A stretch of 64,000 nt of DNA, from the IMG/VR virus record IMGVR_UViG_2880372215_000004. One strand, 5' to 3'. The stretch comes from a virus (lineage: Duplodnaviria; Heunggongvirae; Uroviricota; Caudoviricetes). A program made the position numbers and the translations under genes. The first letter of the stretch is position 1; each line of letters opens with the position of its first letter. The notes under the pieces are model-generated. The model searched no databases. It was not told the DNA's origin and saw nothing but the letters and a program-made list of their open reading frames with translations. This document shows positions 20,525-26,745 of this stretch, piece after piece.

Positions 20525-22378
20525 ATGACATTTAAACATTATGATGTTGTCAGGGCGGCGTCGCCGTCAGACCTTGCGGAAAAGCTGACACACAAACTGA
20601 AAGAGGGCTGGCAGCCATACGGCGGACCGGTTGCCATTACGCCGTACACACTGATGCAGGCGGTGGCTATTGAAGGAGAGCCACAGGTCGGCCCTTCATC
20701 TGAGCCGGATTGGTACTACGTCATCGTACTGGCCGGGCAGTCCAATGCCATGGCTTACGGTGAAGGGCTTCCGCTGCCGGATTCATACGATGCTCCGGAT
20801 CCGCGCATTAAACAGCTGGCGCGCCGCAGTACAGTGACGCCGGGCGGGGCTGCCTGCAGATATAACGATATTATTCCGGCTGACCACTGTCTGCATGATG
20901 TGCAGGATATGAGTACGCTGAATCATCCGAGGGCTGACCTGAGCAAAGGGCAGTACGGCTGTGTCGGCCAGGGTTTACATATTGCCAAAAAACTGCTCCC
21001 GTATATCCCGAATAACGCGGGGATCCTGCTGGTACCATGCTGTCGTGGTGGTTCGGCATTTACCCAGGGCGCGGAGGGGACATTCAGCGAGTCCACGGGG
21101 GCCAGTCAGGATTCGGCACGCTGGGGGGTGGGCAAGCCGTTATATCAGGATCTGATTTCCCGCACAAAAGCGGCATTGCAGAAAAATCCCAAAAACGTTC
21201 TGCTGGCCGTCTGCTGGATGCAGGGTGAGTTTGACATGAGCGCCGCCACCCACGCACAGCAACCTGCGCTGTTTACAGCCATGCTGACACAGTTTCGTGC
21301 TGACCTCTCCGTGTTTAACGCGCAGTGCCATGGTGGCAGCGCTGCAGATGTGCCGTGGATTTGTGGTGACACGACGTATTACTGGAAAAATACATACGCT
21401 ACCCAATACGACACCGTGTACGGCGGGTATAAAAACAGGGAGAGTGAGGGCGTTTATTTTGTGCCCTTCATGACAGACGGTAACGGCGTCAATACCGCCA
21501 CTAACGCGCCGGCAGAAGATCCGGATATTCCGGCATCAGGATATTACGGTGCGGCATCGAGAACGAATGGAAACCAGGTATCATCAAACCGCCCGACACA
21601 TTTCAGTTCATGGGCGCGCAGGAGCATTATTCCGGATCGTCTGGCAACCGCTATTCTGAACGCAGCCGGGCGCACCTCCGCCTTCATCAGTGGTAAGGCA
21701 CCGGAAATCAAACCCTCGCCCGGCGGCAACACGCCATCGGGTCCGTCTGCAGATACGTCCGTTCGCACAATCTCCCTGCTGCCGGCAGCCGGAGAGGCTG
21801 CTGCGCAGGGCTGGAGCATTAAGGATGGCGGAATTCAGTTGTCAGATGGTGTATTTAAGATCACCAGGCAGAGCAATAAAACCTGGTCCCTGACGCATCC
21901 GGTGGATGACGCAATTACCCTGCTGACACAGGGCGGCAGACTGAACTGTAAGTTCCGCCTGTCAGGCGCACTGACCAACAATCAGTTCGGGCTGGGGATT
22001 TATCTGTATACGGATGCTCCCGTTCCTGATGGTGTGGCGATGACGGGTACCGGTAATCCGTTCCTGATGTCGTACTTCACTCAGACCACTGACGGCAGAG
22101 TGAATCTGATGCATCACAGGAAAGCCGGAAACACGAAGCTGGGGGAGTTCGGCGATTACGGTAACGACTGGCAGACGCTGGAGCTGGTGTTCACCGCCGG
22201 CAGTGCCACGGTTACTCCGAAACTGAATGGAGTGGCTGGCCCGGCATTCCAGGTTATAAAAGACAGTCTGACACTGGGACTGAATGCGCTGACGCTGACG
22301 GATGTTACAAAAAATGCAGCGTATGGCGTTGAGATAGAAAGTCTGGTGCTGGAGATAAATGCACCGGCATCATCATAA
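20525..22378 (+). CDS. nanS-p: prophage sialate O-acetylesterase (NanS-p type), 617 aa
   Basis: [11 protein letters not shown] esterase motif; GGGAGG Shine-Dalgarno; typical position between tRNAs and lysis genes. Confidence 0.8.
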
Positions 22379-22527: not shown

Positions 22528-22743
22528 ATGTACCAGATGGAAAAAATCACAACAGGTGTGTCATACACCACGTCAGCGGTAGGGACGGGATACTGGTTAC
22601 TGCAACTGCTGGACAAAGTCTCTCCGTCCCAGTGGGTGGCAATAGGTGTACTGGGGAGTCTGCTGTTTGGCCTGCTGACGTATCTGACTAACCTGTATTT
22701 CAAAATCAGGGAGGACCGCCGTAAGACGGCGCGGGGAGACTAA
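22528..22743 (+). CDS. S: holin, S21-type pinholin-like, 71 aa with dual-start MYQM
   Basis: ORF 22423..22743; internal ATG 22528; two hydrophobic segments; precedes SAR endolysin. Confidence 0.8.
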
Positions 22744-23142: not shown

Positions 23143-23676
23143 ATGAACGCAAAAATCAGATACGGCCTGTCGGCTGCCGTTCTGGCGCTGATTGCCGCAG
23201 GTGCGCCTGCGCCTGAAATCCTCGACCAGTTTCTGGATGAAAAGGAAGGTAACCACACCACAGCATACCGTGATGGTGCGGGTATCTGGACCATCTGCCG
23301 TGGAGCCACCCGGGTGGATGGTAAGCCTGTTATTCCTGGCATGAAGCTGTCGAAGGAAAAATGCGACCGGGTTAACGCCATTGAGCGTGATAAGGCGCTG
23401 GCATGGGTGGAGAAAAACATCAGAGTGCCACTGACCGAACCCCAGAAAGCGGGGATTGCGTCATTCTGTCCGTACAACATTGGCCCCGGTAAGTGTTTCC
23501 CGTCGACGTTTTATAAACGAATTAATGCAGGAGATCGAAAAGGTGCCTGCGAAGCGATTCGCTGGTGGATTAAGGACGGTGGCAGAGACTGCCGTATTCG
23601 CTCAAATAACTGTTATGGTCAGGTATCCCGTCGTGACCAGGAGAGCGCGCTGGCGTGCTGGGGAATCGACAGATAA
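23143..23676 (+). CDS. R: SAR endolysin (lysozyme-like), 177 aa, N-terminal signal-anchor-release segment
   Basis: ORF track; hydrophobic Gly/Ala-rich N-terminus; lysis-cassette position. Confidence 0.8.
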   Translation: MNAKIRYGLSAAVLALIAAGAPAPEILDQFLDEKEGNHTTAYRDGAGIWTICRGATRVDGKPVIPGMKLSKEKCDRVNAIERDKALAWVEKNIRVPLTEPQKAGIASFCPYNIGPGKCFPSTFYKRINAGDRKGACEAIRWWIKDGGRDCRIRSNNCYGQVSRRDQESALACWGIDR

Positions 23677-23949: not shown

Positions 23950-24645
23950 ATGAAAGAGATGATTTCTGTCGATCATGAAATATCCATGAGTAGTCTGGAT
24001 TTTCTGAATAACATTATTAATCCAGCCCGGGCAGAAGCCGGAGAAGTCCCTCATGAACCGCGTAAGTTTCTTGCAAAAATTGAGGATGAGCTAGAGCTTG
24101 ATGGAACCGGAAAAAAATTCCGGTTAAACAATAACCAGACAAGAACGGCATACTATGATCTGGATTTTGACCAGATGATGCTCGTTGGCATGAGGGAGTC
24201 AAAGGCCGTTCGTCGTTCTGTGCTGGCAAGACTCAAAGCGATGCATGGTATTCAGATCCCCCGGACTTTACCTGAGGCGTTGCGATTTGCGGCAAAACTG
24301 GCTGAACAGAAAGCAGTGCTGGAAAATCAACTGGCAATAGCAGCGCCGAAGGCTGAATTTGTTGATAACTATGTTGAAGCATCTGGTCTGATGGGATTCC
24401 GGGAAGTTGCTAAGTTACTCGGTATCAAAGAAACCGATTTCCGGCTGTTTTTGTTGGAGAACGGAATAATGTATCGCCTCGCTGGAAAAATGACGCCTTA
24501 CTCGCATCACCTGGATGCGGGGCGGTTTAGCGTGAAAACGGGCGAGGCGGGCAATGGTCATGCTTTTACGCAGGTTAAATTCACCCCAAAAGGTGTTCAG
24601 TGGATTGCTGGTCTGCTTGCTGCATGGAGAGCTACCGCAGCATGA
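23950..24645 (+). CDS. ant: phage antirepressor (Ant/KilAC-domain-like), 231 aa
   Basis: ORF track; sits between endolysin and Rz. Confidence 0.65.
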   Translation: MKEMISVDHEISMSSLDFLNNIINPARAEAGEVPHEPRKFLAKIEDELELDGTGKKFRLNNNQTRTAYYDLDFDQMMLVGMRESKAVRRSVLARLKAMHGIQIPRTLPEALRFAAKLAEQKAVLENQLAIAAPKAEFVDNYVEASGLMGFREVAKLLGIKETDFRLFLLENGIMYRLAGKMTPYSHHLDAGRFSVKTGEAGNGHAFTQVKFTPKGVQWIAGLLAAWRATAA

Positions 24646-24882: not shown

Positions 24883-25341
24883 ATGCTTTCCGCGTTTACC
24901 GTTATTCTGCTGGTGGTCTGTGGTGCGCTTAGTCTGGGGCTGAATCATTACCGCGATAACGTCATCACCTACAAAGCGCAGCGCGATAAAAAAGCCAGAG
25001 AGCTGGAGCTGGCAAACGCAACCATTACTGATATGCAGGTGCGCCAGCGCGATGTTGCTGCGCTCGATGCAAAATACTCGAGGGAATTAGCCGATGCGAG
25101 AGCTGAAAATGAAACTCTGCGTGCTGATGTTGCCGCTGGTCGTAAGCGCCTGCGGATCAACGCCACCTGCTCCGGTACCGTGCGTGAAGCCACCGGCACC
25201 TCCGGCGTGGATAATGCAACCGTCCCCCGACTGGCAGACACCGCTGAACGGGATTATTTCATCCTCAGAGAACGGTTGATGACAATGCAGAAGCAGCTGG
25301 AAGGGGCACAGGACTATATCCGCACTCAGTGCCTGAACTAA
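24883..25341 (+). CDS. Rz: i-spanin Rz, 152 aa from MLSAF (GTG at 24868 possible)
   Basis: ORF 24775..25341; N-terminal TM then NHYRDN..YKAQRDK lambda Rz-like sequence. Confidence 0.8.
   Translation: MLSAFTVILLVVCGALSLGLNHYRDNVITYKAQRDKKARELELANATITDMQVRQRDVAALDAKYSRELADARAENETLRADVAAGRKRLRINATCSGTVREATGTSGVDNATVPRLADTAERDYFILRERLMTMQKQLEGAQDYIRTQCLN
25094..25279 (+). CDS. Rz1: o-spanin Rz1 lipoprotein, 61 aa, embedded in +1 frame of Rz
   Basis: ORF track; lipobox LVVSAC; proline-rich. Confidence 0.8.
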   Translation: MRELKMKLCVLMLPLVVSACGSTPPAPVPCVKPPAPPAWIMQPSPDWQTPLNGIISSSENG

Positions 25342-25673
25342 GTTTTGCTGATGCGCCGTATCGTCGCTGTATTCCCTCATTAACAGAGACCGCAGCCCGA
25401 CAGGGAGACTCCTCTGCGCGAGTGTGCGGGGAGAATCAAAAACGATACGCACCGGGGTTTACCGCGTTAACGGAGCGCGGCGTTGTCCCCTCATGGTCGC
25501 TGGTTCGGTGCGATGGTGGAAGAAACCGGACGATGTGTTACCTCGCAAGACCTGTTATGTCATGTGTCTGATTTGTGATTTAAGTCGGATAATTGTCGTT
25601 GCCATTAAGCAGAGGATTGATGGCCGACAGGGTGGCATTGTTAGAATAAGACTTATTCTTATCTGTGCCGGGA

Positions 25674-26006
25674 ATGAAAATGAAAAGAAATCTTCCGTTA
25701 ATTATTTTGTTGTCTTCTCTGGTTATGGGCTGTACGCAACATAAAACAGATATGCCCCGACAGTTGGTTAAGGCATTACCACAATATCCGGCCTATGCAG
25801 CGGCAAATTATATAAAGGGACGGGTTGATGTGAAGTTTGATATTGGTGCTGATGGTACTGTCACCCGAATTGAGTTTATCCGTTCAGAGCCGCACCATCT
25901 GTTTGATGAGCAGGTTGTAAAGGCGATGGCAAAATGGCGATTTGAGAAGGACAGGCCGCGTAAAGGCGTGAAGAAAACGTTTATCTTTAGTCCTTCTGCA
26001 CCCTGA
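25674..26006 (+). CDS. lipoprotein with TonB C-terminal-like domain, about 110 aa (start 25674 or 25680)
   Basis: ORF 25665..26006; lipobox LVMGC; C-terminal YPAYAAANYIKGRVDVKFDIGADGTV...AMAKWRF. Confidence 0.6.
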   Translation: MKMKRNLPLIILLSSLVMGCTQHKTDMPRQLVKALPQYPAYAAANYIKGRVDVKFDIGADGTVTRIEFIRSEPHHLFDEQVVKAMAKWRFEKDRPRKGVKKTFIFSPSAP

Positions 26007-26137
26007 TTATTTCATCAGAAATTAATTATCACTCTGTTGTTATTCTGTACATTCCGGCTGGGTAAGTCTTGTTCCGCCGGGTATGAAGATGAAATATTGT
26101 TGGAGGACAGTGGGTACCTGCTCCTGTAACCGAACGT

Positions 26138-26338
26138 TCATTTCTCGTTATTTGTCATGCTGGCCGGACGCAGATGCGTTGCATCTGTTGCCAGCCTTCT
26201 CCTGCAGGCTTCAATAACCCACGCTGAAAAGTTACCGGAACCTTTATGTTCAAGGGCGATATTGATCTGTTCAATCATGTGATTGGGGAAACGGATATTG
26301 CGGGTTGTGGTTCTGCGGGTCCGGTTTTTCGATGACAT
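26138..26338 (-). CDS. small basic putative DNA-binding protein, 66 aa from MSSKNRT
   Basis: ORF 26138..26398; AAGGAA 6 nt before internal ATG; divergent from HNH gene. Confidence 0.5.
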   Translation of the reverse strand: MSSKNRTRRTTTRNIRFPNHMIEQINIALEHKGSGNFSAWVIEACRRRLATDATHLRPASMTNNEK

Positions 26339-26379: not shown

Positions 26380-26745
26380 ATGGCTGAGCTTCGTACACTC
26401 CAGAGCAGAATCAAAACACTGAATACCCGACGGGTGAATATTCTGAAGGGTGAACAGCGTCGTGTCAGTGGCAGTGCACGTGTTTCCCTCAAGCGTCATA
26501 TCTGGCTCAGGGATGCCGGGCAGTGCTGTCTCTGTGGTCGTGTGGTTGACCTCTGTGACAGTGAACTCGATCACCGAATTGCACTTCAGTTCGGTGGTGG
26601 TAATGAGGAGACGAATCTCTGGACGCTCTGTACCGAATGCCATCGACAAAAGTCTGCTCGTGAAGCGGCGGGTGGTATGCCGGACCCGACGCTGCCGGAG
26701 GTGTCCGGAGGTAGTGGCAGAGCGGACGACATCATCGGACTGTAA
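26380..26745 (+). CDS. HNH endonuclease (terminase-associated type), 121 aa
   Basis: CCLCGR...LDHRIALQFGGGNEETNLWTLCTECHRQK. Confidence 0.8.
   Translation: MAELRTLQSRIKTLNTRRVNILKGEQRRVSGSARVSLKRHIWLRDAGQCCLCGRVVDLCDSELDHRIALQFGGGNEETNLWTLCTECHRQKSAREAAGGMPDPTLPEVSGGSGRADDIIGL

Follow-up and report, generated by a model that had tools for sequence, protein, structure and literature searches.

A lipoprotein gene downstream of the lysis cassette of a lambdoid prophage

The stretch of viral DNA analysed here (IMG/VR record IMGVR_UViG_2880372215_000004, Caudoviricetes; 64,000 nucleotides, referred to as the window) matches lambdoid prophages of the Escherichia coli O157:H7 type at 100%, and carries, shortly after its lysis cassette, a small gene for a lipoprotein with a TonB C-terminal domain. 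A first-pass annotation, made from the sequence alone, had placed this gene at 25674-26006, and had proposed that its product could interfere with TonB-dependent uptake. A reading of the sequence gives a single open reading frame (ORF) within 25665-26006 on the plus strand of the window, with three in-frame starts. The gene itself is real, and its start most likely lies 6 nt downstream of the one first proposed, at the ATG at 25680 (MKRNLP...). This start is preferred to the ATG at 25674 because a GGGA motif lies 6 nt upstream of it, because the RefSeq annotation of the identical protein WP_000828070.1 begins there, and because the earlier ATG is an ATA in a 74%-identical allele found in phage 21 and in a prophage of E. 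coli Nissle 1917. The GGGA Shine-Dalgarno-like motif overlaps the earlier ATG, a start at which would add only the residues "MK" to the protein.

The lipobox read in the first-pass annotation as LVMGC is present as VMGC directly after a hydrophobic core, with Cys18 (codon 25731-25733) as the predicted acylated residue and Thr-Gln at positions +2 and +3. In an alignment of 12 family members the lipobox Cys is invariant, and in all family members examined the residue at +2 is Thr, Ser or Ala and never Asp, so that sorting of the protein to the outer membrane is predicted under the Lol +2 rule. Between this Cys and the position that corresponds to P153 of TonB there is a linker of 7 residues.

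The protein carries a complete TonB C-terminal domain

The remainder of the protein aligns to residues 153-231 of E. coli TonB without gaps and with ~39-40% identity (phmmer), and phmmer searches of the Protein Data Bank sequences matched E. coli and Salmonella TonB C-terminal domain structures (8rd6, 1u07, 1xx3, 2gsk and 2grx) at E=3e-16 to 2e-15 over 79-81 residues. Profile searches clearly bear out the resemblance to the TonB C-terminus that had been claimed, as Pfam TonB_C (PF03544) matched residues 36-103 with E=5.5e-15 and a score of 56 bits (gathering cut-off, 24.6 bits), and TIGR01352 scored 56.5 bits (cut-off, 27.1 bits). An AlphaFold2 (AF2) model, for which seven family members served as input, contains the fold of this domain, with three beta-strands and two helices; its predicted local distance difference test score is >90 for residues 30-110, to the end of the model, and is low only in the signal peptide and linker. 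Foldseek superposed the model on 1u07 at a root-mean-square deviation (rmsd) of 0.8 A over 79 residues, and on the BtuB-bound TonB (2gsk_B) at 1.1 A with a TM-score of 0.91.

The residues that matter for function in TonB are largely retained as well. Postle et al. (PMC3005593) described seven functionally important residues in the C-terminal domain of E. coli TonB, five of which are poorly conserved in TonBs generally and conserved in enterics, and assigned to these residues a role in discriminating transporters and colicins. All seven positions are kept in the protein encoded in the window (Y163, F180, G186, F202, W213, Y215 and F230 of TonB correspond to Y38, F55, G61, F77, W88, F90 and F105), the sole change being Y215 to F90. 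Across the lipoprotein family, F77 and W88 are invariant and F105 is nearly so, and the YP motif of the domain is kept in the window protein. The last strand, the partner of the Ton box in 2gsk and 2grx, is also present, with only four residues following it.

The possibility that this is a genuine TonB was rejected. The N-terminal transmembrane anchor is missing, with a cleavable lipoprotein signal peptide in its place; the 108-residue protein has no proline-rich spacer that could span the periplasm; and the full-length equivalog models of NCBIfam scored 50-73 bits, against cut-offs of 265-448, matching only at their C-terminal positions 152-240. The gene product is a complete TonB C-terminal domain carried on a lipoprotein, and is not a TonB.

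The gene resides in a discrete insert

Comparison with a related phage, vB_EcoS-569R3, in which the corresponding site is empty (...GGAAGAAACCGAACGTTCATTTC...) and only one copy of a 9-bp repeat is found, delimits an insert of 595 bp that consists of the gene, ~140-147 bp of upstream DNA and ~121 bp of downstream DNA (Table 1). The GC content is ~42-46% in the insert and 43.5% in the ORF, against 52-58% and 52-57%, respectively, in the neighbouring phage genes. Because of the empty site in a related phage and this drop in GC content, the gene is a moron, a discrete insertion with a distinct base composition. The first-pass annotation had likewise called it a moron and placed it after the lysis cassette; genes for a holin, a lysozyme, an ANT-domain protein, Rz and Rz1 do lie directly upstream. 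The same annotation had given about 330 bp of non-coding DNA on each side. This is correct upstream, where the gap measures ~335 bp, only the last ~140 bp of which belong to the insert, and incorrect downstream, where 131 bp separate the stop codon from a DUF3950 gene. The DUF3950 gene is part of the phage backbone outside the insert and is also present in a phage that has no moron (L002); beyond it lie an HNH endonuclease gene (26380-26745) and then the gene for the small terminase subunit (Pfam).

Table 1 Features of the TonB_C lipoprotein gene, its insert and its immediate surroundings, in window coordinates
Feature	Position	Strand	Details and basis
Rz i-spanin gene, end of lysis cassette	24883..25341	+	Pfam Phage_lysis, 1.9e-49
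Rz1 o-spanin gene, embedded in Rz	25094-25279	+	Pfam Rz1, 7.7e-21
9-bp imperfect direct repeat, left copy	25523..25531	+	AACCGGACG; junctions compared with the empty L002 site
Moron insert, 595 bp	25533..26127	+	Missing from phage vB_EcoS-569R3; GC drop
Candidate extended -10 element	25639..25647	+	TGtTAGAAT; read from sequence
Perfect 8-1-8 palindrome	25643..25659	+	AGAATAAG-a-CTTATTCT; repeat search; overlaps the candidate -10 element and the expected transcript start
Shine-Dalgarno-like motif	25670..25673	+	GGGA, 6 nt 5' of ATG 25680; AGGAAT at the same place in the phage 21 allele
TonB_C lipoprotein coding sequence	25680..26006	+	108 aa + stop; identical to RefSeq WP_000828070.1, "TonB family protein"
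Lipoprotein signal peptide (predicted)	25680..25733	+	MKRN, hydrophobic core LPLIILLSSL, lipobox V-M-G-C
TonB C-terminal domain	25755..25991	+	Equivalent to E. coli TonB residues 153-231; phmmer, Pfam, TIGRFAM, AF2 and Foldseek
9-bp imperfect direct repeat, right copy	26119..26127	+	AACCGAACG; junctions compared with the empty L002 site
DUF3950 (YlcI/YnfO family) gene	26138..26338	-	Pfam DUF3950, 4.2e-20; RefSeq annotation

The lysis cassette upstream, as identified by Pfam, contains a P21-type holin gene (22528-22743), followed by a DUF1327 gene and a lysozyme gene (23143-23676). Between the lysozyme and Rz genes lies a gene for an ANT/KilAC antirepressor (23950-24645, plus strand; Pfam ANT, 2.7e-28), which is probably another inserted gene within the cassette. 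Just 5' of the holin gene is a gene for a 617-residue carbohydrate esterase of the SASA family with DUF1737 and DUF6645 domains (20525-22378, plus strand). Between Rz and the insert, ~180 bp of apparently non-coding DNA (25351-25532) are 93-96% conserved in phages that lack the moron (L002 and L003); this segment gave no Rfam match, and its fold z-score was not significant.

Candidate signals for transcription

Upstream of the gene, the block ATTGT(T/C)AGAATAAGAC, within which the candidate -10 element lies, is conserved in the phage 21/Nissle allele, which is modest evidence for an autonomous promoter; the element is a candidate only, and a simple scan for -35/-10 consensus sequences did not call it. 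The palindrome that overlaps this element was considered as a conserved operator and rejected, as its right arm is missing in the phage 21/Nissle allele. Regulation by Fur was rejected as well, since the best match to the 19-bp consensus in the promoter region was 13/19, and a score of 13 or more is reached at 26 sites in the window, which corresponds to background; within the insert, such 13/19 matches lie at 25645 and 26018. No intrinsic terminator was predicted after the gene or between Rz and the gene, and as there is none between Rz and the gene, read-through on the late transcript is expected. The flanks of the gene gave no Rfam matches at E<=1 and had fold z-scores of 0.28 and -0.77. 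On the opposite strand, inside the ORF, there is a sigma-70-like site (TTCACA-16-TATAAT, 11/12; 25807-25834, minus strand), which may give rise to an antisense transcript or may be a promoter-like sequence that arose by chance within the gene, in acquired AT-rich DNA.

The lipoproteins form a widespread family under purifying selection

Of the 5426 complete E. coli genomes searched with the ORF alone (blastn), 1615 (~30%) carry the gene, nearly always at full length, and in 1610 of these carriers it is intact. Two alleles make up the E. coli copies. The first, at >=90% nucleotide identity, accounts for 414 copies and includes an identical gene of strain EDL933 in the prophage adjoining ompN. 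The second, at ~74% identity, accounts for ~1200 copies and is the allele of the classical lambdoid phage 21, where it is annotated as "TonB C-terminal domain protein" and lies after bor and before cos, and of the Nissle 1917 prophage, where it lies after iss. The gene is also present in Stx1a-converting phages, and relatives were found on 215 viral contigs of IMG/VR. Members of 40-49% identity occupy the slot between lysis and terminase genes in Klebsiella phage ST13-OXA48phi12.4 and in a Sodalis prophage. The phage copies always occupy this slot, from lysis to packaging genes, and do so in four phage backbones that are unrelated to each other: the HK97-type prophage of enterohaemorrhagic E. 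coli (EHEC), phage 21 with the Nissle prophage, the Klebsiella phage and the Sodalis prophage. In the Sodalis prophage (L013, 9242-9568), a second small lipoprotein gene (MSMKKMIIPLIFLAVSGCATV...) was observed between the TonB_C lipoprotein and terminase genes, so the slot can hold more than one lipoprotein moron.

Further copies are chromosomal. In Klebsiella and Raoultella the gene lies between lacZ-lacI and a DUF1440 gene, and in Serratia grimesii between a CxxCxxCC-domain gene and dsbB-nhaB. The DUF1440 gene, which encodes a YagU-like membrane protein, adjoins the chromosomal TonB_C lipoprotein gene in Raoultella. In Klebsiella phage ST13-OXA48phi12.4 such a gene is annotated as well, ~3 kb ahead of that for the TonB_C protein (positions of the two observations: L004, 8744-9307; L019, 277-903). 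This shared neighbourhood may reflect linkage or coincidence.

Among 1.8 billion representative proteins, 4903 relatives with a TonB_C domain were found, the top ones of which include a set of 107-133 residues, most with lipoboxes. A neighbour-joining tree built on the domain groups the alleles of the E. coli phages with the proteins of the Klebsiella phage and the Sodalis prophage and the chromosomal proteins of Klebsiella and Raoultella, in a clade that has 100% bootstrap support and is separate from genuine TonBs. This separation argues that the gene, as judged from its sequence, is a member of a dedicated family of TonB_C lipoproteins that moves between chromosomes and phages, and recent capture of the 3' end of E. 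coli's own tonB was rejected for the same reason. The core of the domain is invariant across the family alignment. Between the two E. coli alleles, the ratio of nonsynonymous to synonymous substitution rates (dN/dS) is 0.12, with a dN of 0.19 and a dS of ~1.5. Together with the intact state of nearly every copy in the carrier genomes, this ratio indicates a genuine gene under purifying selection and not a chance ORF. In five database variants of the phage 21-type allele (P0012, P0013, P0018, P0019 and P0021), of which P0012 stands for 130 member sequences, the last beta-strand is lost to a frameshift that changes the C-terminus; they may result from faulty assembly or from decay in cryptic prophages, where frameshifted copies are to be expected.

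Relation to known proteins and earlier annotation

The existence of the protein is not new, as databases name it "TonB family protein" or "TonB C-terminal domain protein", and an older entry calls it a [quoted passage not shown]. By sequence it belongs to PHROG 1267 (E=1.9e-42), which is labelled "Rz-like spanin". The functional label does not fit, and since the prophage has an Rz and an Rz1 of its own, it was probably assigned by position.

The nearest structural relative is the C-terminal domain of TonB itself (residues ~150-239; PF03544, TIGR01352; 1u07, 2gsk and 2grx), with which the protein shares the fold, the YP motif and the seven functional residues. It differs from TonB in that the anchor with its SxxxH motif, the proline-rich spacer and the residues past approximately TonB 235 are absent, and a lipoprotein signal peptide is present instead. 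Engineered periplasmic TonB fragments come close to this arrangement. As summarised in PMC9841981, Howard, Herrmann, Stratilo and Braun (2001, J Bacteriol 183:5885) reported that an overexpressed periplasmic TonB domain inhibits iron import via TonB-dependent transporters. Those fragments likewise consist of the TonB periplasmic or C-terminal domain uncoupled from ExbB/ExbD, but are laboratory constructs that are soluble, longer and overexpressed, whereas the natural protein would be lipid-anchored on a very short tether and is diverged in sequence. They serve here as a working model for the natural protein.

In anatomy, the protein also resembles Llp of phage T5 and Cor of phi80, N15, HK022 and T1-like phages, which are described as small phage-encoded outer-membrane lipoproteins that act on FhuA from the periplasmic side and block the entry of phages and colicins. 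The likeness is confined to a small, phage-encoded lipoprotein that is predicted to reside in the outer membrane, and no Llp or Cor family was found among the Pfam or PHROG matches of the window protein. Llp and Cor are specific for FhuA and plug this receptor, whereas mimicry of TonB could in principle affect every transporter that is gated by TonB. By this analogy, the protein would belong functionally with Llp and Cor, acting by mimicry of TonB. A 2024 review of superinfection exclusion names Cor alone in connection with FhuA and TonB.

A further comparison is with the Bor and Iss morons of lambda, phage 21 and DLP12-type prophages, which are found at the same place, after the lysis cassette and before cos or the terminase genes, are likewise small outer-membrane lipoproteins, and benefit the lysogen. 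In phage 21 and Nissle, a bor or iss gene adjoins the TonB_C gene. Bor and Iss differ from the present protein in having an unrelated fold and function (serum resistance), and their genes lie on the opposite strand.

Other features of the window

Two further regions of the window were noted. After the tail-fibre genes, a stretch of AT-rich DNA (47961-52659) looks like an effector exchange locus, and holds a gene for NleH, a kinase of the type III effector class (51104-52024; score 581 bits, cut-off 450), unassigned ORFs of 441 residues (47961-49286, minus strand) and 189 residues (52090-52659), and a tyrosine-recombinase-like ORF (49947-50687, minus strand). Further on (53625-59097), an IS66-family transposase gene (53625-55163, minus strand) is followed by a fragment of a recE-like exonuclease VIII gene (57853-59097, minus strand), and the two together suggest that a second prophage or remnant abuts the first.

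A possible outer-membrane decoy for TonB

The reading that we favour, with a probability of roughly 0.45, is that the protein acts as a dominant-negative decoy of TonB, tethered to the outer membrane, which competes for the Ton boxes of TonB-dependent transporters. The linker of ~7 residues would keep the complete TonB C-terminal domain immediately beneath these transporters, on their periplasmic side, where the last strand of the domain could bind the Ton boxes of FhuA, BtuB, FepA and Cir by beta-strand augmentation in the manner of TonB, and the Ton boxes of incoming group-B colicins would be possible targets as well. Because the protein has no membrane anchor, no proline-rich spacer and no coupling to ExbB/ExbD, it would transmit no energy and would instead compete with the TonB of the host, dampening every TonB-gated route of entry. 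A lysogen or infected cell would benefit from the exclusion of TonB-dependent phages (T1-like and phi80-like) and from tolerance of TonB-dependent colicins and microcins, at the cost of some iron and B12 uptake. Interference of this kind appears the most plausible function because the seven residues are kept, because anchoring in the outer membrane is predicted, and because engineered periplasmic TonB domains have been reported to be inhibitory. Such engineered domains reportedly also lowered sensitivity to phi80 and colicin M. A broader form of this proposal, which we put forward more tentatively, is that the protein is a natural, phage-borne dominant-negative TonB that would turn down all TonB-gated doors at once for phages, group-B colicins, microcins and siderophores, and that its chromosomal cousins may regulate TonB traffic.

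A number of observations weigh against a decoy. In the domain itself, R158, Q160 and R166 of TonB, which lie near the Ton box or the plug, are replaced by K, L and Y in the window protein; the residue at position 166 is usually Tyr across the lipoprotein family, and Q162, which the window protein keeps, is R in the phage 21 allele. The fixed, non-prophage loci of the gene in Klebsiella, Raoultella and Serratia suggest a housekeeping role that is not necessarily one of defence. The ~30% of E. coli genomes that carry the gene include Nissle 1917, which depends on siderophores, and strong inhibition of TonB would starve such a cell of iron. As carriers of this kind depend on siderophore uptake, expression must be low, conditional or restricted to the lytic cycle, or else the effect must be partial. 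The promoter is only a candidate, and no terminator was predicted. A search of PADLOC-DB gave no match to a defence family at E<=0.1, and full-text literature searches returned no paper, functional study or experiment on this protein. Nor does the J protein of the prophage suggest self-exclusion, which would be conceivable if the prophage itself used FhuA as its receptor. The C-terminus of J matches VT1-Sakai at 99% and the lambda type at ~54%, with no record of phi80, N15 or HK022 among the matches listed for it; it gives no sign of FhuA use, and self-exclusion was rejected on these grounds.

Competition for Ton boxes could also have been selected for host physiology and not for defence, in that it tunes iron and B12 import and with them the Fur regulon, an explanation that we consider unlikely. 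The effect could extend to iron-repressed virulence genes of EHEC such as stx1, and in Klebsiella, Raoultella and Serratia the protein could be a chromosomal regulator of TonB traffic. The conserved chromosomal positions (lacI-DUF1440 in Klebsiella and Raoultella, CxxCxxCC-dsbB in Serratia) speak for this explanation, as do the presence of the gene in Stx1a-converting phages and the weak Fur-box-like matches in the insert; those matches, however, do not stand out from 26 other sites in the window, the two alleles do not share the palindrome, and the link to stx1 is speculation.

A dominant-negative outcome could be reached through a different contact, if the protein trapped the host TonB in a heterodimer of C-terminal domains, or the periplasmic domain of ExbD, instead of binding Ton boxes. 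The aromatic residues kept in the protein are those that, as Cys substitutions, give disulfide-linked TonB dimers in vivo (PMC3005593), the region equivalent to TonB 153-170 is present, and Foldseek weakly lists the intertwined dimer 1qxx (E=0.34, rank 20), while 1u07 was solved with two chains. PMC3005593, however, also argues against an existence of the crystal dimers in vivo, and a domain held at the outer membrane by 7 residues is unlikely to reach ExbD at the inner membrane. We regard trapping as quite unlikely.

A role as an accessory of lysis or of the envelope, in which the TonB-like fold would bind peptidoglycan or an envelope protein and modulate lysis or outer-membrane integrity, appears very unlikely. 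The best PHROG match falls in the lysis category, and the phage gene lies directly 3' of the lysis cassette in the orientation of the late transcript, with no terminator following Rz. Against this, a full spanin pair, Rz and Rz1, is already encoded by the prophage; a folded domain of 80 residues without a C-terminal transmembrane segment resembles neither o-spanins nor u-spanins; a related phage manages without the gene, and its chromosomal orthologues have no lysis genes beside them; and the slot is a general hotspot for morons, where bor and iss are found in phage 21 and Nissle. A role as a spanin proper was rejected on the basis of the separate Rz/Rz1 pair, the TonB_C fold, the missing C-terminal transmembrane segment and the dispensability of the gene in related phages. 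Finally, the idea that the ORF is a relic without function, namely a piece captured from the 3' end of tonB, which the "partial" of the older annotation and the frameshifted variants of the phage 21-type allele might imply, is close to refuted by a dN/dS of 0.12 at a dS of ~1.5, by the 1610 of 1615 carriers with an intact gene, and by a lipoprotein signal peptide that was acquired and conserved in a clade of its own.

Implications for phage and host

Even if the decoy reading is wrong, the gene belongs to a widespread and selected family of predicted outer-membrane lipoproteins that is mislabelled as a spanin in at least one phage database. If it is right, the family would provide broad-spectrum superinfection exclusion and bacteriocin tolerance by mimicry of the energy transducer of the host, and would be the first natural example found in which a phage uses mimicry of TonB to disarm outer-membrane gates as an entire class, where the known proteins Llp and Cor instead block a single receptor. 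This would matter for the host range of phages used in therapy, as many therapeutic and model phages use TonB-dependent receptors, and for the ecology of colicins and microcins in the gut. Siderophore-antibiotic conjugates might enter lysogens that carry the gene less well, and the finding would bear on iron-regulated virulence in EHEC.

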